DNA of 64,000 bases, from assembly GCA_964428315.1 (NCBI GenBank), contig CAYRXT010000003.1, forward strand, positions 4,151 to 68,150. Reading direction: 5' to 3'. Shown in pieces: positions 2,440-56,745 of the stretch (its first letter is position 1; each line of letters begins with the position of its first letter). Under the pieces are notes generated by a model that was given only the letters and a program-made list of their open reading frames with translations, searched no databases and was not told where the DNA came from. The translations under genes were made by a program, and so were the position numbers. This DNA is from an uncultured Planctomycetales bacterium. GTDB lineage: Bacteria; Omnitrophota; Gorgyraeia; Zapsychrales; CAYRXT01.

Positions 2440-3198
2440 CTACAATTTTCGGCCTCTGATTCCGTCAAACATGAAATGCCGCGCCAAATTCCGTTTTTCC
2501 AACACATACATCACCCCGCACCAGAGGACGCCGAACCCGTAACGGACGCTGCGGCGGAAATTAATCGAAGAGGAATCCTCATTGTAGGCGCACGGGGAGG
2601 TGATCTCCCCGATCCGGTAACCGCAGAACGCGGCCTGGACAAGGATCTGGTTGTCGAACACGAAATCGTCGGAGTTCTCTCCCAGCGGCAGGGTCTCGAG
2701 CACCTCCCTGGAAAAGGCCCGGTAACCGGTGTGGTATTCGGAGAGCTTCTGCCCGGTGAGCACATTTTCCACGGCCGTCAGCAGGCGGTTGGCGAGGTAT
2801 TTATAGAAGGGCATGCCTCCTTTGAGGGCGTAGCCGCCGAGGATGCGCGATCCCAGGACGACGTCGAAGAGCCCCGACGCGATCAGCGCCGCCATCGGGG
2901 ATACCAGTTGCGGAGGGTACTGGTAGTCGGGGTGCAGCATGACCACGATATCCGCTCCCCGGCGCAGGGCCTCGCGGTAACAGGTCTTCTGGTTGCCGCC
3001 GTACCCCAGATTCTTTTCGTGCACGATAAGGGACAGGTCAAGACGTCGGGCGACCTGCACGGTATGGTCCCGTGAATGGTCGTCCACGACGATGATCTCA
3101 TCGACGACTTCGCGCGGTATGCCCTGGACCGTCTTTTCGATCGTCTTCTCGGCGTTATACGCCGGCAGGACAACGATGATTTTTTTGTTGTTCAGCAT
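2440..3198 (-). CDS. GT2 family glycosyltransferase (dolichyl/undecaprenyl-phosphate sugar synthase-like)
   Basis: MLNNKKIIVVLPAYNAEKTIE...VVDDHSRDHT... is the DxD-type GT-A N-terminus; overall GtrB/DPM1-like. Confidence 0.75.
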   Translation of the reverse strand: MLNNKKIIVVLPAYNAEKTIEKTVQGIPREVVDEIIVVDDHSRDHTVQVARRLDLSLIVHEKNLGYGGNQKTCYREALRRGADIVVMLHPDYQYPPQLVSPMAALIASGLFDVVLGSRILGGYALKGGMPFYKYLANRLLTAVENVLTGQKLSEYHTGYRAFSREVLETLPLGENSDDFVFDNQILVQAAFCGYRIGEITSPCAYNEDSSSINFRRSVRYGFGVLWCGVMYVLEKRNLARHFMFDGIRGRKL

Positions 3199-3311
3199 GG
3201 CCTGCGCGTGATTCGTGATCCGGGTTTCCTGTCTGCCAGCAGGCAGGCGTGATTCGTCAAATGAATCTTTCGCGAATCACGCATCACGAACGACGAATCA
3301 CCTTTTCTTCC

Positions 3312-4340
3312 CTAAGTTTTCTTCTCCCCCCAAAATCCCCCGACGTATCGCCGGTCCATCTTGTCCTTGAGAGGACGCCACCAGTCTTCATGATCCCGGT
3401 ACCAGGCGATGGTCTCCTTCATCCCCTCTTCCATGGTGCAATCCGGTTTCCAGCCGAGCGCCCTCAATTTGGAACAGTCCAGGCTGTAGCGGAAATCATG
3501 TCCGGGACGGTCCATGACATATTTGATGGATGATTCGTCCTTTCCCGTCAGCCGAAGGATAAGCCTAGTCAGGTCCAGGTTCGAACACTCACCCGTGCCG
3601 CCGATATTATAGGTTTCCCCGTCTTCGCCGTTTTCTACGACCCGGTCTATCCCCCGGCAATGGTCTTCGACGTGCAGCCAGTCGCGCACCTGCTTCCCTT
3701 CCCCGTAAAGGGGCACCTTTTTTCCCTCCAGCAAGTTAGTGATGAAAAGAGGGATGACCTTCTCCGGGTAACAGCGCGGGCCGAAATTATTGGAGGCCCG
3801 CGTCACGATCACGGGCAGTTTATAGGTCGCGTAAAAACTGTGGGCCAGCCGGTCGCCGCCCAGTTTGGCCGCAGCGTAGGGGTTGCGCGGTTTCGTCTCA
3901 TCGGTCTCCCGGAAACTCCCTTCCCTGATCTCGCCGTACACTTCATCGGTGGAGACCTGGACGAATTTGTGCAGGCCTTTCTGCTTCCTGGCCTCCTCCA
4001 GCAGGACATAGACTCCCACCACGTCGGTGTAGAGGAACTCCTCACCCCGGTCGATCGAGCGGTCCACGGCGGACTCGGCGGCAAAGTTGACGACGACCTG
4101 CGCGTCCTGCATGGCCCCGCGCACCGTCTCTTTGTCGCAGATATCGCCGCGGATGAATTCAAAATCATCACGGCCTTCAAAGGCCTTCACATTTTCCGGA
4201 TTGCCGGCGTAGGTCAGCTTGTCCAGGACACGGACACGTATGTCTTTCTTGTTCCGGAAAAGATAACGCACAAAATTGCTGCCGATAAAACCGGCCGCGC
4301 CGGTGATAAGATATGTCACCCTACCGGGTCTGCTTTTCAT
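3312..4340 (-). CDS. rmlB: dTDP-glucose 4,6-dehydratase
   Basis: ITGAAGFIGSNFVRY..., STDEVYG, YAAAKLGGD and the characteristic C-terminus (DHEDWWRPL). Confidence 0.9.
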   Translation of the reverse strand: MKSRPGRVTYLITGAAGFIGSNFVRYLFRNKKDIRVRVLDKLTYAGNPENVKAFEGRDDFEFIRGDICDKETVRGAMQDAQVVVNFAAESAVDRSIDRGEEFLYTDVVGVYVLLEEARKQKGLHKFVQVSTDEVYGEIREGSFRETDETKPRNPYAAAKLGGDRLAHSFYATYKLPVIVTRASNNFGPRCYPEKVIPLFITNLLEGKKVPLYGEGKQVRDWLHVEDHCRGIDRVVENGEDGETYNIGGTGECSNLDLTRLILRLTGKDESSIKYVMDRPGHDFRYSLDCSKLRALGWKPDCTMEEGMKETIAWYRDHEDWWRPLKDKMDRRYVGGFWGEKKT

Positions 4341-6387
4341 GGGGATCCCCTTTCACGGCCGGGCCCTTTGTCGGGACCAAAAGCCTTATAATGACCATGG
4401 CCAGCCCAAGGTTCAGCCAAAGGTAATTGCCGAGTTTGACGGAATAGAAGCTGGTCTCGAAGGCCGCGTGGACAAGAAACCCGAACAGGCCGCTCACCAG
4501 GCCGTACGCCACGAAGGTCAACGGCCCATGTGCCGCTTTTTTGAGTTGCCGTCTGGAAAAAACAAAGAACCGCCAGAAAATCCACAGGAAGGCGAACAAT
4601 CCAGGGATACCGGTCTCCGCCCCCATCTGCAAATAGCAGTTGTGAGGGTATCCCCCCCAGGAAATCTTATAGTTCCGGCCCACCTGGGAATAGGTGTTCA
4701 CGCCTGTTCCAAGGAATAAGTGGTCTGCCATAATGGCTATGGCCTCATGCCAATAATTAAACCTTCCCGAGGCCCTGAATTTCTTGATATCCTTTATTTT
4801 CTCTTTGGTTATCACCCTGAGTTTTTCCATCTCCCGGTTCACCGCCAGTTCGACAGGACTCTTTTCCATTTCCCTCCTTGAATCTTCGGCTTCATCCATT
4901 GCCACGATCCCGGATGATGTTTCCGGCAAGTGTTCCGGCGTTATAGGGGGCAACTCAAATCTCCCCTCTCTCATCCCTTCTGTTTCGGACTGAGTATTGG
5001 CAGCGAGTTCAGGGCCAAATTTCGGCCGGGATGCATGCCGTGCCAAGGCCCCGGCATCCAGGACAAAATCGTCCCGCTGCCATTGAGAGCCCAAGAGCGT
5101 CCAGAGACAGACATATATCTTGTCCGCAGTCACAGGCACATCTTTGACAACATGGGACCCGCCGGGCCCCGCCTTGCCGCTGTATATGTCGCCCCAGGGA
5201 TCGGACCGGAAATATTTTTTGTCCGAAGCCAGGCTGAGCCAGTATTTTTCTGCCTGTGCGTTCTCCTTCCAGGAAAACCTTAAATCCTGTCCGCCCTCCG
5301 AATAACTGATCAACTTCACTCTGAGGGCCGGGTCATAAACGTCTTTCCCGGGTTCCTTCACGGCCTCATATTCCGGATTCTCCGGACCTTTTGTTTCTTC
5401 AACATCCCCGTTGCCCTCGATTTTCACCGCCCTTTCTCTCCTTTCCCGGTCGGCGGATTCAATCTTATCAATCTTTTTTTGAATGGCGCGCGCGACACGC
5501 CTGGTGTCATCGGTAAAATAGGACACATTGCGCAGATTTTTCATTTGCTGGGTAAACACCAGTCCGAACATGACTATAATCAACAAACTCATGCCGGCAT
5601 ACCTGCGATTCGAAAACAGATAACAAATCAATCCGGCAAACAATCCGAAATAGACGGCCCGGGAATACGTCCATCCGATATTCATTATGATCAGGACGGC
5701 GAGTATCAGGAACAGGATAAACCCGATGGCCCTCCTGCGTATTGTCAGTGTCTTATGCCCGGGGTCGGCAAGACCGAACAATAAGCTCAGGACCATCATA
5801 ACAGGCACAAGGAGGTAGGCGCCGAAATCGTTGGGGTGGCGGAAACACGAACCGATGCGCCCTCCCGCAATAATCTTGTGCGCGAAAATAAAACCCTCAC
5901 CGGTATGGAACTGCCAGAGACCGTTGATCGAAACCAGGGTGACGGCGGCCAGGAAGACACCCAGCAGAAATCGCACCTGCCGACTGGTCTTCACGCATTC
6001 CAGGATAATAAAATACAGAAACGTCCATTCAAGGATCTTATAGAAGAATCCCTTCAGGCTTAAAGCGAGATAATCGCTGACCAGTATGGATAACGCATTA
6101 ACGGCAATAAAGACGACAATCGGTCCGTCCAGGACGCTGGGCTCCGGACGGAAAGAGGAAAGGAACAAACGCACGACCGAATAAGCCTTATTGAAAAGAC
6201 CGCCCCGCCCGCGTCTTTCATGATTCATGCGGAATACGAACAGGTGCAGGCGTTTGATCCAGAAGAAAAATATGACGGCGCCGGCAAAACTTTCACACAA
6301 CGCGATCGAAATGGGCAAAAAATAGATCAATCCCACGTATGAAAAAAACAGGATTCTGTTATAAAACCGATACGGAAAATTATTCAT
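4321..6387 (-). CDS. O-antigen ligase/Wzy_C family membrane protein with a ~300-aa hydrophilic insertion
   Basis: N-terminal TM bundle, then a charged soluble segment (RERRERAVKIEGNGDVEETKG... plus a folded-looking segment YEAVKEPGKDVYDPALRVKLISYSEGG...). The C-terminus carries the Wzy_C signature ...GGYPHNCYLQMGAETGIPG. Confidence 0.6.
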   Translation of the reverse strand: MNNFPYRFYNRILFFSYVGLIYFLPISIALCESFAGAVIFFFWIKRLHLFVFRMNHERRGRGGLFNKAYSVVRLFLSSFRPEPSVLDGPIVVFIAVNALSILVSDYLALSLKGFFYKILEWTFLYFIILECVKTSRQVRFLLGVFLAAVTLVSINGLWQFHTGEGFIFAHKIIAGGRIGSCFRHPNDFGAYLLVPVMMVLSLLFGLADPGHKTLTIRRRAIGFILFLILAVLIIMNIGWTYSRAVYFGLFAGLICYLFSNRRYAGMSLLIIVMFGLVFTQQMKNLRNVSYFTDDTRRVARAIQKKIDKIESADRERRERAVKIEGNGDVEETKGPENPEYEAVKEPGKDVYDPALRVKLISYSEGGQDLRFSWKENAQAEKYWLSLASDKKYFRSDPWGDIYSGKAGPGGSHVVKDVPVTADKIYVCLWTLLGSQWQRDDFVLDAGALARHASRPKFGPELAANTQSETEGMREGRFELPPITPEHLPETSSGIVAMDEAEDSRREMEKSPVELAVNREMEKLRVITKEKIKDIKKFRASGRFNYWHEAIAIMADHLFLGTGVNTYSQVGRNYKISWGGYPHNCYLQMGAETGIPGLFAFLWIFWRFFVFSRRQLKKAAHGPLTFVAYGLVSGLFGFLVHAAFETSFYSVKLGNYLWLNLGLAMVIIRLLVPTKGPAVKGDPHEKQTR

Positions 6388-6529
6388 AATATCATCGCTG
6401 TCTGAATTGCTCGCGAGTGACCACAGGGAGCGGCGAAGCCCCCTGCGGGGAAGCGATCTTATACTCGACAGTCAGGATTGCTTCAGCCGCTGTGCCCCTT
6501 CGCAATTATACTTTTGCCCTTCCCGCTAT

Positions 6530-8519
<1,990 letters not shown>

Positions 8520-8523
<4 letters not shown>

Positions 8524-9845
8524 TCCTTAAATATGTTCACAGTTCTATCATAAAACTTGCCGCCGTTCAACAGGTTATACGCTGAAAGGTACAGCCCGAT
8601 CCCGGTCCAGGTGAGAACCGATAACTGCAGTGTGTACAAATCGACGTCAAAAAAACTGTGGACCAATATCGAGACCGTACCGCTCCCCAAACCCAGGGCG
8701 AGGATCCGCAACGCGTTGTCCGCCGGCAGCAGTTTGGCCCGCGCCAGCCTCATCATTGTCTTGAAAAAAGAAAGGACGATCCAGACAAAGCCCAAGAGTC
8801 CCAAAAGACCGGTCTCGGCCGCCATCTGGATATAGCAGTTATGCGCGTAGGTTTCGGAAAACAACCTGTTCTGCGGCCGGCGACGGTAGTCCTGAAACAA
8901 ACGCATGTACGTGTTCAGACCGTGACCAAAAAAGGGCCTCTCGCGGATCATGGCCAGGCTGTCTTCCCAAATGTTCAGGCGCCAGAGAAGATGAGAGTGC
9001 AGTTCCCGGCCGCTTAGCCTTTCTTTGACTTTCGGGTTACCGCCGAGCATACTCCCCAGACAGCCCGCCACGATGACGGCCCCGAACAGGACCCCCGCCC
9101 ACTTTTTACTGCTGAGAACGACGAAAACCGCCATACCCGCCGCCGCGGACAACCATCCGGCCCGGGAGAAGGTCAGGCCCAAAAGCCAGCCCGCGCCCGC
9201 GGCCAAAACACAAAGCAAGAAACGTTTACCTTTTTGAGTTCCGCTCATAGCGAAAACGGCCGCAGACATCGGCAACATCATCGCCAGATAGGCCGCGAGA
9301 CTGTTGGCGTGATGGAATCCCGCTGTCGCTCCGCCCCGCGTGATCTCCCGTCCCAAAAAGATATCTGTTCCGGTCCAGTAATACTGGACAAAACCGTCGA
9401 GTACCACAGCGGTCGTGGTAACGAGAAAAACGATAACGGCCCGCCGGATGTGCTCCGCTTTGGAAAAGGCTTCAATGACAAGAAAATACACTACGAACCA
9501 TTCCAGGGTTTTTGTAAAAAAGCCTCTTAACGACAAAGGCCAGATCCGGCTGGCCGGAATGGACAAGACGCACGCCAGCAGAAAGAAGGCAATCGGTTTG
9601 TTCAAAGGGCTCCGGACCGGTTTAAGGGCAGAGAACAGGCCCCTGATTTGTTCAGTCCATCCATTCTTCCTGAAGATGCCCGGCCCGTACGCCAGCCCTC
9701 TTTTGACCAGCCACAACAACAAGGCGATGATGACACAGGACTCCACGACCGCCGTGCTGTAGGGGAGCCAAAAAATCAGCAGATAAATGAAAAACCGGAT
9801 CCCTGATTCGATATAACCGATTATTCTTTCTTTATTCATAATCAC
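8520..9845 (-). CDS. O-antigen ligase/Wzy_C family membrane protein
   Basis: Polytopic; ...[22 protein letters not shown]... is the Wzy_C motif. Confidence 0.6.
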
Positions 9846-9848
9846 CTG

Positions 9849-9966
9849 GGTCCCCGCTTAAGGCATGCCTCGAAGGGGTCTAATCAACGGGGATGACAGG
9901 TTCCTTTAACCGTGTTATGCCCGCCGAGTTGCCCCCCTTGGGGGCGTAAGCGGGCTTCCCGCATCA
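9849..9966. repeat. structured intergenic repeat element, copy A (~118 nt)
   Basis: Shares with 15090..15201 a 12-nt left arm (cccgcttaaggc), a ~33-nt conserved core (gatgaNag..cctttaacNgtgtYatgcccgccgag) and a right arm (ggggcgNaagcgggc). The right arm is the near reverse complement of the left arm, giving a closing stem. Confidence 0.6.
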
Positions 9967-11388
9967 ATACGCCCCTTTGCCTTTAATAACAACCGGCACC
10001 GTCTGCAAAAGGATATAAAGGTCCAGGAAAAAAGACCAGTTGTTGATATACCAGATATCCCATCGGATCAGCCGGAAAAAAGAGACGTCGCTGCGGCCGC
10101 GTATCTGCCAGAGACCGGTGATGCCTGGCCTGACCTCCAGCCTTTTGAACTGCCGCAGGTCGTGCTTCTCGATCTGCTCAATCGGCAGTGGCCGCGGCCC
10201 CACCAGGCTCATCTCTCCGTGCAGGACGTTGATCAGTTGCGGCAGTTCGTCAAGGCTGTATCTCCGCAAAAAGGACCCGATGCGCGTGACCCGAGGATCT
10301 TTTTTCATCTTGAAAATCGGACCGTCCGTCTCGTTGAGATTACGCAGGTCCTTCAGCCTTTTGTCCGCCTCGTCAACCATGCTCCTGAATTTCAGCATAG
10401 AGAAGATCCGGCCCCTACGGGAGTAACGCCGAGACTTGTAAAAAACGGGTCCGGGGCTGTCAGCTTTGATTATAAGCGCAATGACAAGAAAGACCGGAAA
10501 GAGCACGATCAATGCGGCCAGGCTCATGACAAAATCAAAAAGCCTCTTGCCCAACTGTCTGCGAGTGTCGATGAGACCCGTATATTCCAAAACGGGGATG
10601 AATCCGATATTGAAACGGACGAGTTCCCCCTCGATATGTGAAAAACCCTCGGGTATGACGCGGACAGAAACACCCAGTTCCCTAGCCTGATCCAGAAGAC
10701 TCAAAAACGCCTTGCTGTCATGATGGATCGTAATGAAAACCTGGTGGATAAATTCCCTTCTGGCGACCGGCACGAAATCCGTGATCCGGCCCAGTATTTT
10801 CGGCGAATCCTCCGACTTCATTTCGGTTTTAAAATCATCCAGAAAGCCGGCCACGCGCAGTCCCAGGCTCGGCTGTTTCTTGATTTCCCAGGCCAGGGCG
10901 CTCCCGATCTTTCCCGCGCCGATCACCAGCACGTTAAAGTTGTTGTATCCGTGTGCCACGATATAATCGACAACCATCCTTTTCGCCATCCGCCAGAGAG
11001 ACATGAAGACAAACATGAACCCCGAGGTGATCGCAACGATCGTTCTCGGAAAACCCTCGATCTTGAGGACGTAAATCGTCACGATCAGGATAAGGGTGGC
11101 GATGACAACACATTTCAGCACCAGTAATATTTCCACGCCTTTAAAAACCTCGCGCCGGGTCTGGTAAAGGCGGTTGGCGTTGGCGCAGGAAACCGCCGAC
11201 AGGATCCACAGGGCGAAAAGATAACGGAAGGGATTGTCCTGGCTGAAAAGGATCCCGTCCCATGTGACCGGAAAACCCAGCGTCCCCTGACGGATCCATG
11301 AGGCCAGGAATACGGCCAGATAGATGACGAAAAAGTCAACGGCGATATAAAAACTTTTGATGAGGTAGTGGTTGATGATTCTTGTCAT
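9964..11388 (-). CDS. polyprenyl-phosphate phosphoglycosyltransferase (WbaP/WcaJ-like initiating enzyme)
   Basis: N-terminal TM helices and a Rossmann-like middle (VLVIGAGKIG). The C-terminal bacterial sugar-transferase domain reads ...KMKKDPRVTRIGSFLRRYSLDELPQLINVLHGEMSLVGPRP... Start chosen at M16 (MTRIIN), 3 nt after the upstream gene's stop. Confidence 0.85.
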   Translation of the reverse strand: MTRIINHYLIKSFYIAVDFFVIYLAVFLASWIRQGTLGFPVTWDGILFSQDNPFRYLFALWILSAVSCANANRLYQTRREVFKGVEILLVLKCVVIATLILIVTIYVLKIEGFPRTIVAITSGFMFVFMSLWRMAKRMVVDYIVAHGYNNFNVLVIGAGKIGSALAWEIKKQPSLGLRVAGFLDDFKTEMKSEDSPKILGRITDFVPVARREFIHQVFITIHHDSKAFLSLLDQARELGVSVRVIPEGFSHIEGELVRFNIGFIPVLEYTGLIDTRRQLGKRLFDFVMSLAALIVLFPVFLVIALIIKADSPGPVFYKSRRYSRRGRIFSMLKFRSMVDEADKRLKDLRNLNETDGPIFKMKKDPRVTRIGSFLRRYSLDELPQLINVLHGEMSLVGPRPLPIEQIEKHDLRQFKRLEVRPGITGLWQIRGRSDVSFFRLIRWDIWYINNWSFFLDLYILLQTVPVVIKGKGAY

Positions 11389-12143
11389 GACCTGTGGAAC
11401 GCGGACCGCGCCGCGCTGCGTGCCAGAAGGCACAAAAATTTCGTATTGCCGACGATATAACGTTTGCCCAGCCGCCGGGGTTCAGACATCAGCCGGAACA
11501 ACCATTCTAAACCGCTTCTTTGCATCCAGCAAGGGGCCTGCCTCTTTTCTCCGGAAAGGAAATCGAAGGCCGCCCCCACCCCGATCATCACCGGCGCCTC
11601 CAGGGCGGATCTGTTTTCGGCCATCCAGAAATCCTGCCTGGGCGAACCAAGTCCGACCCAGAGGATGTCAGGACTGGCCTTGTTAATGACGTCGACCATC
11701 CTGCGGTTTTGCTCCTCCGTGAACGCGCCGAACGGCGGGGCCAGGATTCCCGCGATCCCGATGCCCGGGAACTTCTTCTTGAGATTGTCCGCCAGCCGTC
11801 CGCACACTTCCGGCGTTGAACCGAAAAAGAAATGCGTAAACCTCCGCTTCAGTCCGTACCCGCACAACGCCAGAAGAAGATCGGGACCGTAAGTCCGGGC
11901 GATCATCCTTGACCCCCGGGCCTTCCCCAGCCAGACAAGCGGCATACCGTCGGGTGTGACGATCTCCGCATTGTTGACAACGCGGCGGTACCTTGGATCA
12001 TCCGCCGCCGCCACGATGGTAGAGACCGGGGCGACACACACATAGCCTTTGCGCCTTTGCGCGATCCACGCTTCAATATACCCGCATGTTTCCGAAAGAT
12101 TGGTGTCCGAGACCTCTACACCTAACACGTTAAAGCGGTTCAT
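11385..12143 (-). CDS. WecG/TagA/CpsF family glycosyltransferase (GT26)
   Basis: MNRFNVLGVEVSD... and ...VGLGSPRQDFWMAE... are typical GT26. The ORF-track N-terminal extension to 12380 overlaps the upstream GT2. The ATG at 12141-12143 overlaps that gene's stop (ATGA coupling). Confidence 0.8.
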   Translation of the reverse strand: MNRFNVLGVEVSDTNLSETCGYIEAWIAQRRKGYVCVAPVSTIVAAADDPRYRRVVNNAEIVTPDGMPLVWLGKARGSRMIARTYGPDLLLALCGYGLKRRFTHFFFGSTPEVCGRLADNLKKKFPGIGIAGILAPPFGAFTEEQNRRMVDVINKASPDILWVGLGSPRQDFWMAENRSALEAPVMIGVGAAFDFLSGEKRQAPCWMQRSGLEWLFRLMSEPRRLGKRYIVGNTKFLCLLARSAARSAFHRS

Positions 12144-12877
12144 TGTCCCGCCGTTTCTTCCGCCTTCACGGAATCGTTCACGATCCAGTACTTCAAGATA
12201 ACGCATATCGCCTGGAATCCGTCCCTCCAGGTTATCTTTTTGCCTTCGTCGTACGTCCGCCCGCTGTACGACACACCCACCTCGTAGATGCGGCACCTGC
12301 GCCGGGCGATCTTGGCCGTGACCTCCGGTTCGACGCCGAAACGGTTGGACCTTAAGGGGATGGCCTTGAGCAGATCGCAACGGAAGGCCTTGTATCCCGT
12401 CTCCATGTCCGTCAAATTAAGATTCGTAAAGACATTGCTCATCAGGGTCAACAGCTTGTTGCCGACATAGTGCCAGAAAAACAGGACCCTCTTCGACTGC
12501 GTTCCCACGAAACGCGAACCGTAAACGCAGTCCGCCCGCCCGTCGATTATGGGTTCGAGCATCAGCGGATAATCCTCCGGATCGTATTCCAGGTCGGCGT
12601 CCTGAATGATACAGATGTCGCCGGTCATGTTCTCGACAGCCGTGCGAAGGGCCGCGCCCTTCCCGGCATTCTGTTCATGGTAAAAGGCCCGGATGTCGGG
12701 ACGAAAGGACTTCTCCAATTCACGGATGATCTCCCCTGTCCCGTCGGACGAACAGTCATCAACGACGATGATCTCCTTTTCGCGCACACCGTCGATCTTC
12801 TGTCCCAGGACGCGCTGGACACAGTGCCGCAGCCATCTCTCCTCGTTATACGCCGGTATCAAAACGCTCAATTTCAT
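12140..12877 (-). CDS. GT2 family glycosyltransferase
   Basis: MKLSVLIPAYNEE...VVDDCSSDGT...IQDADLEYDP. Confidence 0.8.
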   Translation of the reverse strand: MKLSVLIPAYNEERWLRHCVQRVLGQKIDGVREKEIIVVDDCSSDGTGEIIRELEKSFRPDIRAFYHEQNAGKGAALRTAVENMTGDICIIQDADLEYDPEDYPLMLEPIIDGRADCVYGSRFVGTQSKRVLFFWHYVGNKLLTLMSNVFTNLNLTDMETGYKAFRCDLLKAIPLRSNRFGVEPEVTAKIARRRCRIYEVGVSYSGRTYDEGKKITWRDGFQAICVILKYWIVNDSVKAEETAGQ

Positions 12878-12934
12878 CGCCCGCCCTACCTCCCTCTTAT
12901 TCTCGTGTTTCCGTTTACCGGCTCATAAGCCGCC

Positions 12935-13633
12935 TCATCGTCTTTGAAAAGCCTTCTCCCACATCAAAAGGACGTGATCCCAGACCACCCGGGCCGACAA
13001 TTTACTGCGGCCGCAGTGACGGCCGCGGAACTTGTAGGGGATCTCCTTAAGCCGGACAGGTCCCGGGGAAGACGCGCACAGATCCAAAAGAATCTTGTAG
13101 CCCCGGCCCGAGAGGCCCGGCCGGCATGCTTCGAAAAATTCCCTGCGCACAACAAAAAAACCGCTCATGGGATCCTTGATACCGGTCCGGCTTATGCGCC
13201 GTCCCAGCCAGGTGGCCGTCCGGCTGATCCATGCCCGCGGTGCCGACAACCCCTGCGCCCCCCCGCCTTCAACATACCGGCTTCCGACAGCCACATCGCA
13301 GTCCTCCTCTTTCAAGGCCTCCACCATGGCCGGGATAATGGTCTCGTCATGCTGAAGATCCGCGTCCATGACCCCAAGAAATTCCGCCCGGCTGACTGCC
13401 ATCCCTTCAATGCACGCGGATGAGAGACCCCGCCGGCCGATCCGTTTCAGGCAGCGAACCCGCCGGTCCTGGCGGGCCACCTCGGAGACGGCCCCGGCCG
13501 TTCCGTCAGGAGAATCATCGTCGACAAAGATGATTTCCCAGTCGATGCCTTCCAGCACGCGTCTCAGTCTCTCGTACAGCGTCCGGATATTCTCTTTTTC
13601 ATTGTATGTGGGGATCACCATGCTTAATTCCAT
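12935..13633 (-). CDS. GT2 polyprenyl-phosphate sugar synthase (DPM1/ArnC/GtrB-like)
   Basis: LSMVIPTYNEKENI...FVDDDSPDGT...MDADLQHD. Sits immediately upstream of a GT-C membrane protein. Confidence 0.75.
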   Translation of the reverse strand: MELSMVIPTYNEKENIRTLYERLRRVLEGIDWEIIFVDDDSPDGTAGAVSEVARQDRRVRCLKRIGRRGLSSACIEGMAVSRAEFLGVMDADLQHDETIIPAMVEALKEEDCDVAVGSRYVEGGGAQGLSAPRAWISRTATWLGRRISRTGIKDPMSGFFVVRREFFEACRPGLSGRGYKILLDLCASSPGPVRLKEIPYKFRGRHCGRSKLSARVVWDHVLLMWEKAFQRR

Positions 13634-13651
13634 GATAAATATTCCTCATCC

Positions 13652-15043
13652 TCACCTTTTCCGCGGCAGCCACCGGTCCCAAAAGACCGCGACGCATATG
13701 ATGTACAGCGGCGCGACCGGCAGGGCGTATCTCGTCAAAATCGAATAACACGAATACAGGGCCATAAAGGGAACGATAACGAGCAGAGTAAAGGCCGGCA
13801 GTGCCGCCCCGCCGTCCCCGGAAAATATCCGCCTTCCTTTCGCAAGGACGCGGGCTAAAACATAGAAAAACCCGAACGCGGTCAAAAGCCCCGTCACGGC
13901 ACGCACGCCGTAACGCACAGCCTTCGCGTCATAGATTTTCCCCAGCCAGTCCGGATAATTGACAAAACCGATTTGGGTTGATTCCCAAAAAAACAGTTTG
14001 GGCGCCTCGAGCAGCATAAATAAAATGAATTTTGCCGGGTTCTCCCTGATAAAACGGAAAGTCAGGCGAAGGGTTTCGCCGGACCGCTCGTCGTCCGGAA
14101 CGCCTTTTAGGTACCGCTCAAGGTCCACGAGCCCGTAATAATCGGTCGTGGTGAAATTACAGTACGCGCATTCCTCCCGGGTAAAAAACATCCGGCACAC
14201 CCCGTCCCCGGGGATGTTCGCGACATGGGCGGCGACGATCCGCGGTGTCACCTCGCGGCTGCGCTTGTAGGCCGAACCGAAGAGCATCCAGTCGAAACGG
14301 TTGGTAAAGGCGTAGTTACCGTTATGCACCTTGTTCAGGTATTTGTATCCGGCCACGCCGCCCTCAAAAAGGAGGAGCACGGTAAAAAGGAATACGGCCG
14401 TATTCTTCAAACACCTCTTGTCCCTGGACGCTAAACTCTGAAAAAACCGGAAAACAAAAGGGATCAGGCATAAGAAATAAACATACTGGAACACGCCTTT
14501 GGAAAAGACACTCAGGCTGAAGGCTAGGCCCGTCAGAAGCGACCATCCCAAGACCCGCCGGATCCCGGCGTCGAGGAGCAAAAGCCACGAACGGTAAAGG
14601 CAATACACGGTGGCCAGGACAAAGGGAAAACTCATGATCTCGGAAAAAAGACTCATGCTCGCGTTAATAAGGGCGGGCGATAGTCCGATGTAGAGCACCG
14701 CCGCCATTTTGACGCCTTCCCTCACCCTTAGCCGCGAAAGGATCAACAGCGCCATGACCTGGGTCAGGAAAAGGAGGAAAACCTGAAAGATCTTCTGAAT
14801 GCTCTGGTACTGGGCCCCGAAAAGTTCAGCCATTTTCATCGAAAAGGCGATGGACAAAGGGTAAAGCGGCTCTCTGCGCGGGCCGCTCTTCAGATAGCCG
14901 TCGACGAAGCCGCGCTCTACGATCCGCTCCCCCAGCCCTTCATAGCTCCTGGCGTCCATACTGATGTTCATACGGCTCGCAAAGATTAAATGGGCCCAGA
15001 AAACAAAACAGAGGCTGAAAATAATTATCCATATCTTTTTCAT
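13652..15043 (-). CDS. GT-C fold membrane glycosyltransferase (ArnT/PMT_2-like)
   Basis: About 12 TM helices. The first periplasmic loop has DARSYEG, which resembles the DEARY motif of the ArnT/PMT family. Paired with a polyprenyl-P-sugar synthase. Confidence 0.5.
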   Translation of the reverse strand: MKKIWIIIFSLCFVFWAHLIFASRMNISMDARSYEGLGERIVERGFVDGYLKSGPRREPLYPLSIAFSMKMAELFGAQYQSIQKIFQVFLLFLTQVMALLILSRLRVREGVKMAAVLYIGLSPALINASMSLFSEIMSFPFVLATVYCLYRSWLLLLDAGIRRVLGWSLLTGLAFSLSVFSKGVFQYVYFLCLIPFVFRFFQSLASRDKRCLKNTAVFLFTVLLLFEGGVAGYKYLNKVHNGNYAFTNRFDWMLFGSAYKRSREVTPRIVAAHVANIPGDGVCRMFFTREECAYCNFTTTDYYGLVDLERYLKGVPDDERSGETLRLTFRFIRENPAKFILFMLLEAPKLFFWESTQIGFVNYPDWLGKIYDAKAVRYGVRAVTGLLTAFGFFYVLARVLAKGRRIFSGDGGAALPAFTLLVIVPFMALYSCYSILTRYALPVAPLYIICVAVFWDRWLPRKR

Positions 15044-15089
15044 GAGACTTCCTTTTTTCCGACGGTTTTCTTTTTTTTACATCCTCTTT

Positions 15090-15201
15090 GGATGCCCGCT
15101 TAAGGCGTACGGCCGACAGCGCCTCTGTGAGGGAGATGAAAGTCCCTTTAACTATGTCATGCCCGCCGAGCAGGCCCATTAAGGGGCGGAAGCGGGCATC
15201 C
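15090..15201. repeat. structured intergenic repeat element, copy B (~112 nt)
   Basis: See copy A. ggatgcccgcttaaggcg...tccctttaactatgtcatgcccgccgag...ggggcggaagcgggcatcc, where the outer arms are inverted repeats. Confidence 0.6.
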
Positions 15202-15210
15202 AGGTCATTC

Positions 15211-16413
15211 TCAATCTGACGCAACGGATTGTCGCCGCTTCGACTCCCGCAAAGCGTAAGCGTACACCTCCATCAGCCTCTCATGATTCTTATCCGGAGA
15301 CAGTTCCCGTTCATAATGCGTCTTCATATTTTCGCGGATACCGGGAAGCACATGCTCATTGCGCATAATCCACCGCACTTTTGCGGCCAGTGATTCCGCC
15401 GCCGGCTCAAAAAGGAATCCCGTTTCCCCCTCCTTCACCAGTTCCGGCATACCGCCCAGGCGGCTCACCGCAAGAGGCACCTGGCAGGCAAACGCCTCGG
15501 CCACTGTCCGGGGAAAATTCTCATAACAGACCGAAGGGACGATCATGAGTTTCGCGCCGCGAAGAGTCGCGTCATATTCAACGGGACTGAGAAAACCGCG
15601 GAATTCGACATGCTCAAGGTCATTTTGCCGGACAAAGGCCTTCATCTCATCAAACAACGGGCCCTGCCCAACGACTTTCAAAGTCAGGTCCGGGATGGAC
15701 GCCCACGCCTGGAGAAGAATCCGGATCCCTTTTTCTTCGCTCAAACGTCCCGCAAAAAGGGCATACCCTCTGTCTTCACTTTTGGCCTCACCGGAGGTGA
15801 ACGCGACATGCGGTTTGACAAAGATCTTCTCCGCCGGGACGCCGGCTGCGGCGTATTTCTGCCGGCCGAATTCCGTGGCCATGATGTAGGCGTCGACCAT
15901 GCGCGTCCAGGTGCCTCTCTTCCAGTGGTCTTCCAGCATCCGGACCATGACAAAGGTCAGCAAACGCGAATTCTTATAGCATCCGTAGCGCACGCCCCTG
16001 CGCAGAGACTTGTGCTCCCGGCACTCCTCGCATATCCTTCCGTCACGCAGAAAAAGGGCGTTCGAACATAAGAGCCGGAAATTGTGCTGGCTCTGCACGA
16101 CCGGGACCCCTTCGTCCCGGCAGGCCGCGTACACCGAAGGGGACAGCATGAAAAAGATGTTGTGGAAATGCGCGACCTCCGGCCGGAAATCCGCGATCAC
16201 CCTGCGCATGGCGTCATACGATTCCCGCGACCAGCGCATATCCGCGAAAAACCGCAGCGTCCGCAAAGGCGAAAGCCCGTCGAGCTCGCTGTTGCTGCGT
16301 TCATAATAACGCACCTCGTGGCCGTAACGACGCAGGAGATCGCGTTCGTTTTCGGCCACCGCGTCTTCCCCGCCGGGATGGCGGTACCGGTTGTGAGCGA
16401 TCAAGATACGCAT
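15211..16413 (-). CDS. GT4 (group 1) glycosyltransferase
   Basis: MRILIAHNRYRHPGGEDAV... with a C-terminal GT-B domain (EGFPRTVAEAFACQVPLAVS...). Confidence 0.8.
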   Translation of the reverse strand: MRILIAHNRYRHPGGEDAVAENERDLLRRYGHEVRYYERSNSELDGLSPLRTLRFFADMRWSRESYDAMRRVIADFRPEVAHFHNIFFMLSPSVYAACRDEGVPVVQSQHNFRLLCSNALFLRDGRICEECREHKSLRRGVRYGCYKNSRLLTFVMVRMLEDHWKRGTWTRMVDAYIMATEFGRQKYAAAGVPAEKIFVKPHVAFTSGEAKSEDRGYALFAGRLSEEKGIRILLQAWASIPDLTLKVVGQGPLFDEMKAFVRQNDLEHVEFRGFLSPVEYDATLRGAKLMIVPSVCYENFPRTVAEAFACQVPLAVSRLGGMPELVKEGETGFLFEPAAESLAAKVRWIMRNEHVLPGIRENMKTHYERELSPDKNHERLMEVYAYALRESKRRQSVASD

Positions 16414-21534: not shown

Positions 21535-22363
21535 GAGGGGCCTCCGAAGTTTTCCATTGCCGCCAATAATATCCTTTGCATCCTTTCAAAAATGTCCGCT
21601 TAGTCCGCGCGGCCGCCGTCAGGACGCCGCAAAGGCCTTGCCTGAATAGCGGAAAACAACGCCTCATGAAAGGATCATTCGCCATGAGAGAGCGTCTTTT
21701 TTCTTGAAGCTGTTTCCGGGTGCCTGTAAAACTCTTGCTTTCCCCGTGCGCGCGGAAATTCGCCATCACCTGGGGGATGTGCCTGAACCTGAAACCGCGC
21801 AGGGCCAGCCGCAGAAAGAAATCATAATCCATGGAATACCGGTAATCCTCATCCAGAAAATGTCCTTCATCAAAAATGCGCCGACGGAAAAAGGATGCCG
21901 TCGACGGGATGGGAAGAACGTGCAGATACTTTAGCATGAAGAGATCGAAATCCAGCTCCCGGCGGTTCTGCACGGTCCGGCCTTCCTCGTCGATCAAACG
22001 GTAATCCCCGTAAACGACGTCCGCGCTTTTATCCTCTTCGAAGGAACGGCTCACGCGCTCAAAACATCCCGGCAGGTAACTGTCGTCCGCGTTCAGCCAG
22101 CCGATAATATCGCCTTTTGCCCGGCGGAAGCCCTTGTTCAGGGCGTCGCTCTGCCCGCGGTCCGGTTCTCGGACAATCTCAAGGCCCGGGTAGCCGCTCA
22201 AAATATCCGCGGTGTTGTCGTTCGAACAGTTATCCACAACAATGTGCTCCACAAACGGATACCCCTGCGCCCTTACGCTTTCGACGGCCTCCCGTATAAA
22301 CTTTCCTTGATTAAAGGACGGCGTCACAACGGTGATCAAAGGTTTTTGTGTCCTATCGTTCAT
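21527..22363 (-). CDS. GT2 family glycosyltransferase
   Basis: LITVVTPSFNQGKFIREAVESV...GWLNADDSY. Confidence 0.75.
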   Translation of the reverse strand: MNDRTQKPLITVVTPSFNQGKFIREAVESVRAQGYPFVEHIVVDNCSNDNTADILSGYPGLEIVREPDRGQSDALNKGFRRAKGDIIGWLNADDSYLPGCFERVSRSFEEDKSADVVYGDYRLIDEEGRTVQNRRELDFDLFMLKYLHVLPIPSTASFFRRRIFDEGHFLDEDYRYSMDYDFFLRLALRGFRFRHIPQVMANFRAHGESKSFTGTRKQLQEKRRSLMANDPFMRRCFPLFRQGLCGVLTAAARTKRTFLKGCKGYYWRQWKTSEAPHA

Positions 22364-23372
22364 CTTCCGCAAAAGCGCCCCGCGCGTGCGCAGCCCTGTA
22401 TTTCTGGTACTGTTTCTCTTCGGCGACCAAACGCGCGATCAACTCTGAGAAAGAGAGGCGATAATCCCAGCGAAGCTGTTTCTTCGCTTTCGAAGGGTCA
22501 CCGCAAATGGCCTCGATGTCGGAAGGCCGAAAGAGCCCCTCATCAATAATGACATGCTCCCGCCAGTGCAGGTCGAGTTCGGCGAAGACCTTCTCGATAA
22601 AGGAGCGCAGGCTGTGCATATCGCTGGTCGCGATGATATAGTCGTCCGGCCTCCTCTGCTGAAGCATCAGCCACATCGCCCTGACGTAATCCGGCGCGTA
22701 TCCCCAGTCCCGCTTGACATAAATATTGCCCAAGGTCAACTTTTCATTGCTTCCGTTTTTAATGCGAATAGCCGTCGAAAGGATCTTCTTCGTCACAAAG
22801 TGGCTTTTGCGCAGCACGGATTCATGGTTAAACAGGATCCCGCAGCAGCTGAACAGACCGAAGGCCTCGCGGTAATTGATGGTCGTCCAGTGACAGGCGG
22901 CCTTGGAGATCGCGTAGGGGCTTACCGGATGAAGGACCGCGTCCTCCGCGACCGGAAGGTCTTTGACATGGCCGAACATCTCACTGGTTGAGGCCTGATA
23001 AAACCGTGTTTTTAAAGACAGACTGCGGACCGATTCCAGCAGATGCAGGGTGCTGGACAGATTGAAGGCCATGGTCATCCGGGGATGGGCGAAAGAAAAC
23101 CCCACGGAACTCTGGGCCGCGAGATGATATATTTCTTCCGGCCGGCTGTCATTTAACAAATTTTTCACCGCGTCGCTGTTTAATAGATCCAGACGGATCA
23201 AGCGCACCTTATCGCGGATGCCGAGGTAGTCCAGACCGGAAAGGTCCGTATCCTTATCGGCACGGATGACGCCTGTCACCTCGTAACCTTTATTCAGGAG
23301 AAACCGGGCAAGGTAACAGCCGTCTTGACCGTTTATTCCTGTGATCAAAGACTTTTTCGGATTGTGATCCAT
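22353..23372 (-). CDS. GDP-mannose 4,6-dehydratase paralog (Gmd-like NDP-sugar 4,6-dehydratase)
   Basis: SLITGINGQDGCYLARFLLNKGYEVTGVIR, FNHES, and Gmd-like length (339 aa) when started at the ATG 23370-23372, which overlaps the upstream stop by 1 nt. The ORF-track 63-aa N-terminal extension is Arg/Gly-rich junk. Confidence 0.7.
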   Translation of the reverse strand: MDHNPKKSLITGINGQDGCYLARFLLNKGYEVTGVIRADKDTDLSGLDYLGIRDKVRLIRLDLLNSDAVKNLLNDSRPEEIYHLAAQSSVGFSFAHPRMTMAFNLSSTLHLLESVRSLSLKTRFYQASTSEMFGHVKDLPVAEDAVLHPVSPYAISKAACHWTTINYREAFGLFSCCGILFNHESVLRKSHFVTKKILSTAIRIKNGSNEKLTLGNIYVKRDWGYAPDYVRAMWLMLQQRRPDDYIIATSDMHSLRSFIEKVFAELDLHWREHVIIDEGLFRPSDIEAICGDPSKAKKQLRWDYRLSFSELIARLVAEEKQYQKYRAAHARGAFAEDER

Positions 23373-24484
23373 TATGTCGATCTTTCTGTCAATACACTTT
23401 TGTAGACATCCAGCGTCTTTCTGGCTGTTTTCTCCCAGGAAAACATTTCCACGCGCTTCAGTCCGTCCTTTATCCGCTGTCCCGTCCTCCCTTGCGACCA
23501 CACATCGTCCAAGGCCCGGCGCAAGGCCTCGGCATCCCGTGGATCGAAATAATGCGGGCAAGATCCCGCGATCTCTTCGGTGGTAGGAATTCTCGAGGCC
23601 ACAACCGGACAGCCGCAGGCCATCGCCTCCAAAAGCGGAATACCGAACCCCTCGTACAAAGACGGGTAAACAAAGGCCTCGGCCTGATTATACAACTCGC
23701 ATAATTTCTCATCGTCGATATAGGACAGGCGCTTAACGGTTTTATCCAGCCCTGACTCCCGGACCTTTCTGTTTTCTTCCCGCGACCAGGGCGGCCCCAC
23801 GGCCACGAGATCATAATCCTCCTTTTTCGACCACCGCGAAAAGGCCTTCAACAACAGATCGAAATTCTTGTAATGCACGCGGCTGCCGACATAAAGCAGA
23901 AACGGCCTTTGTGGCCTTTCAATGTCTTCTTTAGGGCGAAAGGTTTCCGCCGCAGCCAGGTGCACCACATAAGTTTTTTCCGGCGCGACATCATGAAACC
24001 GGATGAGATCCCTGCGGGTCGTCTCCGAGATACAGATCACCGCCTCCGCGCACTTGATACATCTTTTTTTGCACAGACGGAAGGCCCCGTTGTCCCTGCC
24101 AGGCAATAACTCGGGGAACCATTCATGGATCAAATCGGCCACCGTCAGGACAACAGGCAGGGACCGGCCCTGCGGCAAGGTATAATAGGTCGAATGCCAT
24201 ATTTGCCCGGGCGTTGTTTTTATAATCCAGGGGAACAATACCCTTCTCGCCAAGAATCTCACTCCCCGCCGGAGAAACCGATTCCCGCCTGAAAAGGACA
24301 GCAACTCTCGACGGGCGATGCGCGCGTGGGCGGGCAGATCTTCTCCGGGGACACCTTGGGACAAAAGCGTCACGCGAATATCCGGCTCGACCGAGCACAA
24401 CCGCGGGAGGGTCTCGTGAAATATCCGCGAGATCCCTCCCCTCTTCTGAAGCTCGTATATTATTCCGTCGACAATAAGATCCAT
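23372..24484 (-). CDS. GT4 (group 1) glycosyltransferase
   Basis: GT-B C-terminal domain: ...EGFGIPLLEAMACGCPVVAS... Confidence 0.75.
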   Translation of the reverse strand: MDLIVDGIIYELQKRGGISRIFHETLPRLCSVEPDIRVTLLSQGVPGEDLPAHARIARRELLSFSGGNRFLRRGVRFLARRVLFPWIIKTTPGQIWHSTYYTLPQGRSLPVVLTVADLIHEWFPELLPGRDNGAFRLCKKRCIKCAEAVICISETTRRDLIRFHDVAPEKTYVVHLAAAETFRPKEDIERPQRPFLLYVGSRVHYKNFDLLLKAFSRWSKKEDYDLVAVGPPWSREENRKVRESGLDKTVKRLSYIDDEKLCELYNQAEAFVYPSLYEGFGIPLLEAMACGCPVVASRIPTTEEIAGSCPHYFDPRDAEALRRALDDVWSQGRTGQRIKDGLKRVEMFSWEKTARKTLDVYKSVLTERST

Positions 24485-56578: not shown

Positions 56579-56595
56579 TGTTCAATGATTGAACA
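56579..56595. promoter_or_regulatory. perfect 7-3-7 palindrome tgttcaa-tga-ttgaaca overlapping the predicted +1 of the sigma70 promoter (candidate operator)
   Basis: Direct reading: tgttcaatgattgaaca is its own reverse complement. It lies 3-16 nt downstream of the -10 hexamer. Confidence 0.5.
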
Positions 56596-56597
56596 AC

Positions 56598-56625
56598 ATT
56601 ATAAACATACCAGCTTGAGTGTCAA
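56598..56625 (-). promoter_or_regulatory. near-consensus sigma70 promoter (TTGACA-N16-TATAAT) heading the minus-strand super-operon
   Basis: The reverse complement of 56591..56630 reads atttcTTGACActcaagctggtatgttTATAATgttgttc. The -35 is at 56620..56625 and the -10 at 56598..56603, with a 16-nt spacer, inside a 160-bp AT-rich island. Confidence 0.55.
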
Positions 56626-56745
56626 GAAATAAACGGAGAGCAATTTATATGAAATAGTTTATAACTTACTGCAAATACAATAGTTGCAAATATCCTGGCC
56701 CGGGGGTGGATTTTTTTTCATATAAGTACTAATAGTTCTAGTATG

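Follow-up and report, generated by a model that had tools for sequence, protein, structure and literature searches.

A repeated element in a glycan-biosynthesis operon

The 64,000-nucleotide stretch analysed here (the window; contig CAYRXT010000003.1 of assembly GCA_964428315.1, an Omnitrophota bacterium) corresponds approximately to one glycan-biosynthesis cluster of ~57 kb with ~50 genes, all on the minus strand, and two of the spacers between these genes hold copies of the same ~120-bp element, which is the subject of this report. The co-directional cluster spans positions 654-58146, nearly the whole window. Its products are sugar-nucleotide enzymes, transferases of the GT2, GT4 and GT-C/PMT-like types, two Wzy_C proteins, an ABC transporter (exporter) and NeuB-type nonulosonic-acid enzymes, together with an ACP/KAS III pair, aminotransferases and methyltransferases acting on C and O. 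Homologues of the proteins flanking the element come overwhelmingly from metagenome-assembled genomes of Candidatus Omnitrophota, and since the best of them are only 53-65% identical, the lineage is poorly sampled. A survey of the genes in the 64-kb window found no transposase, recombinase, integrase or NusG/RfaH-like gene.

The initial annotation of this DNA, which was made from the sequence alone, had described two copies of a structured element with shared arms and a shared core inside the glycan locus, and pattern, profile and alignment searches all recovered them there. Its location of the copies (9849..9966 and 15090..15201) was right, and we refined the limits to 9845-9962 for copy A and 15083-15204 for copy B. 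The features are as follows (window numbering; the gene-sense strand is the minus strand).

9845-9962, minus strand: copy A, whole element, 118 nt; occupies the Bac_transf/Wzy_C spacer, with direct TGAT flanks at 9963-9966 and 9841-9844
9853-9864, minus strand: copy A 3′ arm (gene sense), GCCTTAAGCGGG; predicted partner of the 5′ arm at 9947-9954 in a closing stem of 8 bp
9892-9928, minus strand: copy A asymmetric conserved core, sense CTCGGCGGGCATAACACGGTTAAAGGAACCTGTCATC; includes GCGGGC, with which the 5′ arm can pair instead of closing the stem
9941-9955, minus strand: copy A 5′ arm (gene sense), GCCCGCTTACGCCCC; includes the conserved CGCCCC block
15083-15204, minus strand: copy B, whole element, 122 nt; lies 6 nt past the GT4 stop codon and is followed by a 39-nt A-rich leader at 15044-15082
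15089-15101, minus strand: copy B 3′ arm (gene sense); first half of a perfect 13-bp inverted repeat, TGGATGCCCGCTT / AAGCGGGCATCCA
15135-15170, minus strand: copy B asymmetric conserved core, sense CTCGGCGGGCATGACATAGTTAAAGGGACTTTCATC, from the pattern search and the alignment
15190-15202, minus strand: copy B 5′ arm (gene sense); second half of the 13-bp inverted repeat, with CGCCCC directly inside it at 15184-15189

The equivalent placement of the two copies, another claim of the initial annotation, holds: both lie between co-directional minus-strand genes, 5′ of genes for polytopic membrane proteins (Wzy_C and GT-C) with 7-8 predicted transmembrane segments. The spacer of copy A runs from the Bac_transf stop codon TGA at 9964-9966 to the Wzy_C start, which alignment with an orthologue places at ATG 9837-9839 and not at the GTG at 9845, and that of copy B runs from the GT4 stop codon at 15211-15213 to the GT-C ATG at 15041-15043. 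In both, the element begins 1-7 nt past the upstream stop codon, but the distance from its end to the downstream ATG is 5 nt in copy A versus 39 nt in copy B. The Shine-Dalgarno sequence AGGTGA at copy A is made up of the element's 3′ end (…CCCAGG) and the adjoining flank. Another 5 or 6 polytopic membrane-protein genes in the locus are not preceded by the element; by a crude hydropathy count, the cluster holds ~8 polytopic genes.

The element is a mosaic of conserved blocks and unrelated filler

The two copies are co-oriented direct repeats 5,242 bp apart, and their flanks are unrelated, so that the unit is discrete and bounded by its inverted arms. Common to both are the terminal inverted arms (CCCGCTT/AAGCGGG), an asymmetric ~37-nt core and a GGGGCG block. 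On the gene-sense strand, the shared 5′ arm GCCCGCTT is followed by CGCCCC, the shared core reads CTCGGCGGGCAT-R-ACA-YR-GTTAAAGG-R-AC..TCATC, and the shared 3′ arm is GCCTTAAGCGGG. The shared core described in the initial annotation is confirmed; copy B departs from the consensus given there at one position (ctatgtc versus ccgtgtt), and the two cores differ by a 1-nt indel. All four ends of the element conform to GG(G/A)(T/A)n(G/C)CCCGCTT. The terminal inverted repeats are 13 bp and perfect in copy B, and 8 bp and perfect with a GGG/CCC extension in copy A. A third copy of the arm motif lies inside the core, and (A/T)nGCCCGC is found three times per copy, with conserved spacing.

The arm GCCTTAAGCGGG has exactly 2 sites on the minus strand of the window (9853-9864 and 15095-15106), where 0.27 would be expected if one mismatch is allowed. 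The distal arm ggggcgNaagcgggc lies at 9941-9955 and 15184-15198, and a 26-nt core pattern gave exactly 2 matches in 64 kb and 0 in 100 shuffles. Each of the 12-mers is found exactly twice in 64 kb, against 0 to 0.6 expected. A search of the 64 kb with a two-copy profile (nhmmer --max, heuristics off) found no third copy.

In the gene-sense alignment of the copies, 75 of 117 gap-free columns are invariant, which is a pairwise identity of 64%; the 79-82% given by the alignment tool is the mean column identity, not the pairwise identity. The mismatches are clustered, with 17 falling in one 24-nt window (p = 0.004), and the variable 24-nt segment between the core and the 3′ arm is no more similar between the copies than shuffled sequence. 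Because the conserved blocks are perfect and the filler is at the level of shuffled sequence, the element is a mosaic of conserved blocks and unrelated filler.

The corresponding junctions of relatives lack the element

The closest syntenic relative (L015, GCA_053939265.1) has the gene order GT2-WecG-Bac_transf-Wzy_C-Gmd-epimerase, with Bac_transf 65% and Wzy_C 44% identical to the proteins of the window. Its Bac_transf/Wzy_C junction reads TAT TGA AGA ATG, with a spacer of 3 nt, and all its operon junctions are at most 39 nt. In L004, the syntenic GT4 and GT-C genes (37% and 43% identical) overlap by 8 nt. These tight or overlapping junctions indicate that both copies of the element are apparently lineage-specific gains. 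The GT4 homologue of L036 overlaps the next gene, a different one, by 4 nt. The whole module is conserved in L014 (GCA_021108075.1), with spacers of 102 and 216 nt at the two junctions, and these spacers are unrelated in sequence to the element and not significantly structured. The element was absent from the same junctions in L004, L011, L014 and L015, and L036 likewise does not carry it; among the 36 compared loci, none had it except L002, which comes from the same organism. L002 is the sole independent assembly covering copy B and shows it in the same orientation.

The filled site of copy A reads TAT[TGAT]GCGGGAAG...GACCCAGG[TGAT]TATG, and removal of the element with one TGAT leaves TGA-TT-ATG, close to the TGA-AGA-ATG of L015; the two TGAT may be a target-site duplication. 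As judged from these sequences, the simplest history would be that this lineage gained homologous sequences of ~120 bp at two junctions whose counterparts in L015 and L004 are tight, as a dispersed insertion-type repeat would produce.

Mobile DNA is seen in one of the compared loci. L014 carries a TIR/nSTAND NTPase gene beside its glycan locus (1-1429) and a fragment of an IS66-family transposase gene between GT-C and GT2 (11858-12061), which indicates that the glycan loci of Omnitrophota are visited by mobile DNA.

Predicted RNA structure

A long closing stem with internal hairpins had been predicted for the element. When the copies were folded in isolation, the closing stem formed with a probability >0.9 in both, but the core hairpin (loop AAAGG) was predicted in copy A only (~0.97, versus 0.00-0.01 in copy B), and forcing it in copy B costs 7.7 kcal/mol. 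In both copies, GCCCGC of the 5′ arm can alternatively pair with GCGGGC of the core. With flanks of 20-40 nt included, the minimum-energy fold of copy A exchanges the closing stem for this 5′ arm-core helix, and copy B retains the stem. The stability of the folds relative to shuffled sequences is moderate (z between -2.0 and -3.6), and the plus (antisense) strand folds as well as the gene-sense strand.

The seven core pairs of the stem are invariant in the two available sequences, which can therefore show no covariation there. One G-C to A-U pair exchange was found between the two sequences in the core hairpin, which is predicted in copy A only. The terminal inverted repeat is the only feature of the predicted structures that is confidently common to both copies, and its sequence is conserved, not merely its pairing. 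The stem does not vary on either strand and the filler is saturated with changes, which points to sequence-specific recognition of the ends, beyond the need to pair. The stem of copy A is too short for an RNase III substrate. A reading of the AAAGG(A/G)A loop as a CsrA site is speculative.

Searches for known families

Assignment to an Rfam family had been named in the initial annotation as an outcome that would speak against its proposal, and neither copy matched one. There was no match at gathering thresholds across the window, and searches of each copy at E values up to 10 gave nothing meaningful: the best lax matches (E = 1.6) were to archaeal snoRNA models, far under threshold, and the models of epsC/EAR, the group II intron, HEARO and ribozymes were unmatched. 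ARAGORN found no tRNA or tmRNA, a consensus scan found no sigma-70-type promoter inside the element in either orientation (Omnitrophota promoters being uncharacterised), and a terminator scan found no intrinsic terminator within or after either copy. Comparison with plasmids and phages gave no blastn match, and a literature search on the motif strings returned unrelated primer sequences only.

Several known types of repeat were considered and rejected. An integron attC site does not fit, with ends GCCCGCTT ... AAGCGGGC in place of RYYYAAC...GTTRRRY, 2 sites among ~50 genes and no integrase in the window. A retron or the template-variable repeat of a diversity-generating retroelement was rejected because there is no reverse transcriptase and the differences between the copies are not adenine-specific. 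The element is not a symmetric doublet and so is not a REPIN. As for IS66-type ends (GTAAGCG...), copy A has GTAAGCGGGC pointing outward and copy B has GGAAGCGGGC, which we treat as coincidence.

A proposed MITE-like insertion carried in the operon

We favour, with about even confidence, the reading that both copies are an orphan, G+C-rich palindromic insertion element of ~120 bp that resembles the miniature inverted-repeat transposable elements (MITEs) of bacteria and is carried passively in polycistronic mRNA. The element is small (118 and 122 bp, where MITEs stay below ~200-300 bp) and non-coding, with terminal inverted repeats and with filled versus empty-like sites, all of which characterise MITEs. 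A non-autonomous unit of this type, with terminal inverted repeats of 8-13 bp of the TGGATGCCCGCTT type, would have been gained at two cistron junctions of the glycan operon. Because the element lies within the ~57-kb co-directional cluster, it is presumably co-transcribed in a polycistronic mRNA, where its arms could close a stem and so draw the ribosome-binding region of the downstream gene close to the stop codon of the upstream one. Likely side effects would be altered stability or processing of mRNA segments, and a loss of direct stop-start coupling, so that translation of the downstream membrane-protein gene would start independently or in a structure-dependent way. The conservation in blocks may come from the needs of mobilisation (the ends and the internal third arm motif) or from later exaptation. 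It is the mobility of the element, its transcription and any effect on expression that we infer here; the repeat itself, the inverted arms, the conserved blocks and the lack of the element at the matching junctions of relatives were observed directly, and the searches gave neither a known family nor a supported coding reading.

Described bacterial MITEs are ~100-200 bp long; ERIC, Correia/NEMIS, RUP, RPE and YPAL, at ~100-170 bp, form stable stem-loops and are co-transcribed with their neighbours, and ERIC insertions alter mRNA stability in an orientation-dependent manner (PMC2229807). Like these, the element is ~120 bp, non-coding and bounded by terminal inverted repeats (known range 4-24 bp) with a predicted stem, and it lies between operon genes, presumably co-transcribed, at junctions that are empty-site-like in relatives. 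Unlike them, it is known in two copies without a clear target-site duplication, only its terminal 8-16 bp pair while its interior is asymmetric, with the ~37-nt core and unrelated filler, and its copies are old (64% identity), with no cognate insertion sequence in the window and no similarity to described families.

The initial annotation had offered a cis-regulatory RNA and a REP/MITE-like repeat as its two readings, and the latter is the better supported. Its MITE-like part gains from the tight, empty-site-like junctions of the relatives, whereas its REP/BIME part fails on anatomy. The element does resemble a REP as an intergenic palindrome in an operon just past a stop codon, and REP elements can stabilise upstream mRNA segments, as the malE-malF REP does. 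However, the palindromic REP unit measures 20-40 nt, carries a conserved 5′ GTAG/GTGG, is found in clusters and recurs tens to hundreds of times. The element is a single asymmetric unit of ~120 nt without a GTAG-type head, REPINs are symmetric doublets, and no RAYT gene was seen in the window.

A number of observations weigh against an insertion element of this kind. Just two copies were seen in the 64-kb window, both in one orientation relative to transcription, and the window holds no transposase or insertion sequence with matching ends. As target-site duplications the direct flanks are weak, being the 4-bp TGAT in copy A and 3 bp only, ATG(A/T), in copy B, and a 4-nt flank match arises by chance in ~8% of cases when the boundaries are flexible. 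The identity of 64%, with perfect blocks beside filler at random level, implies that the copies are under selection or belong to a modular family, and does not fit a recent transposition. The G+C content of the element is 0.61-0.63, compared with 0.52 for the window, and it has no TA termini, unlike most bacterial MITEs in both respects; YPAL is an exception, a MITE that is not AT-rich and has no TA termini (PMC2229807). The empty-site-like junctions support insertion and fall short of proof, as the relatives are distant (37-65% protein identity), so that loss of the element in those lineages is possible.

A search with the core pattern through 185,579 species genomes, JGI metagenomes and IMG/VR also speaks against this reading, since it returned core-only chance matches at approximately the expected rate. 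These matches lie in coding regions or are without arms, as in an Acetatifactor cation-efflux gene (L001) and a Listeria-Bacteroides-repeat protein (L007). The latter (3372-3420) is the sole core match in the metagenomes, also fits three extra bases (CTC) and lies antisense in a Listeria-Bacteroides-repeat-like protein gene; it was rejected as chance because both arms are missing.

Alternative explanations

A lineage-specific cis-regulatory RNA switch is possible, although we rate it as clearly less likely. The 5′ arm GCCCGC would pair with either the 3′ arm or the core GCGGGC, and the choice of pairing would set processing, read-through or translation of the downstream Wzy_C or GT-C gene. In principle, such a switch would be like the EAR (eps-associated RNA) inside Bacillus eps operons or the put RNAs of phage HK022, which are processive-antitermination RNAs. 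Both copies lie in gene sense, soon after a stop codon and before polytopic genes, their block conservation with filler at random level argues for purifying selection, the competing helices are possible in both, with the alternative helix being the minimum-energy fold of copy A with flanks, the folds beat shuffled sequences (z of -2.0 to -3.6), and the core hairpin shows its one G-C/A-U exchange. The comparison with EAR and put is apt in that EAR is also a structured RNA of ~100-120 nt between genes of a long polysaccharide operon, and put is present as two diverged copies per genome. Unlike EAR, which is confined to Bacillales, the element does not match the Rfam model, is not conserved in related operons and shows neither covariation nor a supported pseudoknot.

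Other observations weigh against the switch. Four syntenic or related loci do not have the element at these junctions, no Rfam model matches it (epsC/EAR included), its closing stem, invariant in the two sequences, shows no covariation, and predictions for copy B do not contain the core hairpin (at most 0.01, with the 7.7 kcal/mol cost of forcing it). The geometry of the ribosome-binding site differs between the copies (ATG 5 versus 39 nt past the element), neither copy is followed by a terminator, the antisense strand folds equally well, and 5 or 6 other polytopic genes of the locus are without the element. The cis-regulatory RNA reading of the initial annotation thus gains no support from syntenic junctions, from Rfam or from covariation in the closing stem, and we keep it as a rival. 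A related proposal, that the element is an undescribed RNA switch of the Omnitrophota lineage which gates the expression of Wzy_C and GT-C and was recruited from, or spread like, a mobile palindrome, seems to us rather doubtful.

It is improbable that the element is an inverton, in which a recombinase encoded elsewhere would flip the 86-88 bp between the arms and make the glycan genes phase-variable, on the model of the capsular polysaccharide promoters of Bacteroides fragilis that Mpi controls. Invertible switches are common in surface-glycan loci, as known from B. fragilis and from PhaseFinder studies, and known ones are ~150-320 bp long. As in the B. fragilis Mpi promoters and E. coli fimS, conserved short inverted repeats (13 bp perfect in copy B, 8 bp in copy A) surround a small segment in a surface-glycan locus, in more than one copy, and the arms are conserved between the copies while the interior filler is not, as if one recombinase served several switches. 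However, the segment of 86-88 bp is unusually short, no sigma-70-type promoter consensus was found in either orientation, the 64-kb window holds no recombinase gene, the position is inter-cistronic and not at the head of the operon, and L002 has copy B in the same orientation.

Very improbable, in our view, is a site that acts at the level of DNA, either as three GCCCGC-type regulator sites per element or as direct repeats that bound a 5-gene initiating-transferase module (9964-15043) for exchange. The three (A/T)nGCCCGC motifs with their conserved spacing would suit the former, and direct repeats 5,242 bp apart around a module that is syntenic across Omnitrophota would suit the latter. No regulator or recombinase gene lies nearby, and there is no promoter at the site to regulate. 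Minimal homology for homologous recombination is ~25 bp, and the identical stretches of at most 13 bp are too short for exchange of the module by that route; the same module in relatives is not flanked by repeats.

A coding role, as a small conserved peptide (minus frame ...AR(L/F)RP..G.LGGH(N/D).VKGT) or the relic of a gene end, is effectively refuted. One frame is open over the 5′ arm and core in both copies with a few synonymous-looking changes, and an ATG in copy A overlaps the upstream stop codon (TGATG). However, the open frames differ in length and end (26 aa versus a 94-aa open reading frame entering the GT-C gene), a plausible start codon is missing in copy B, and third codon positions hold 7 of 14 differences with no concentration. 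When 1.84 billion representative proteins were searched exhaustively with HMMER, the translated frame had no homologue, the only matches being a translated CRISPR array and low-complexity repeats. The open reading frame in question, a TTG-start frame of 94 aa at 14940-15224 (minus strand) that runs through copy B into the start of GT-C, has no homologues and is best treated as spurious.

Other spacers and repeats of the cluster

Seven spacers in the cluster are at least 60 nt long, and 4 of them lie directly 5′ of polytopic genes (two Wzy_C, GT-C and PMT_2), at 6388-6529, 9846-9963, 15044-15210 and 56586-56745. Spacers before membrane-protein genes may reflect a general need to uncouple the translation of these genes. 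The last of the four is 160 nt long and AT-rich (GC 0.32), and is a possible promoter region. An 11-bp G+C hairpin, CCGCAGGGGGC...GCTCCCTGTGG, lies in the 142-nt spacer at 6388-6529 (minus strand), which precedes the second Wzy_C gene (4321-6387), but the spacer as a whole does not exceed shuffled sequence in stability (z = -0.6).

The 113 nt at 3199-3311 (minus strand), between an epimerase gene (3312-4340) and a GT2 gene (2440-3198), form another palindromic spacer that is strongly structured and unrelated to the element. It is made of three CGTGATTCG / CGAATCACG copies and has a minimum free energy of -44.2 kcal/mol (z = -4.1). This spacer may itself be a small insertion of palindromic type, and its presence in the operon suggests that such insertions could be a general feature of the operon junctions of this genome.

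At 81 nt and 70% identity, the direct repeat at 8099-8179 and 22966-23046 is the longest of the window; it lies inside two genes that match GDP_Man_Dehyd strongly (7489-8523 and 22353-23561). As both of its copies are in such genes, it is apparently coding sequence of paralogues and not a non-coding repeat.

Significance

If the element is a MITE-like palindromic insertion, it would be a first glimpse of such an insertion in the Omnitrophota, a phylum known almost only from metagenomes. It would mean that stop-start operon junctions tolerate an element of this kind, with the arms joining the ends of the cistrons and the 3′ end helping to build a ribosome-binding site. Such a finding would be of use in annotation and in thinking on the evolution of operon junctions, and it would be unsurprising to specialists. 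It would matter more if the conserved core were a regulatory RNA or a recombinase target that controls the variation of surface glycans in these ultra-small bacteria, which are possibly host-associated.

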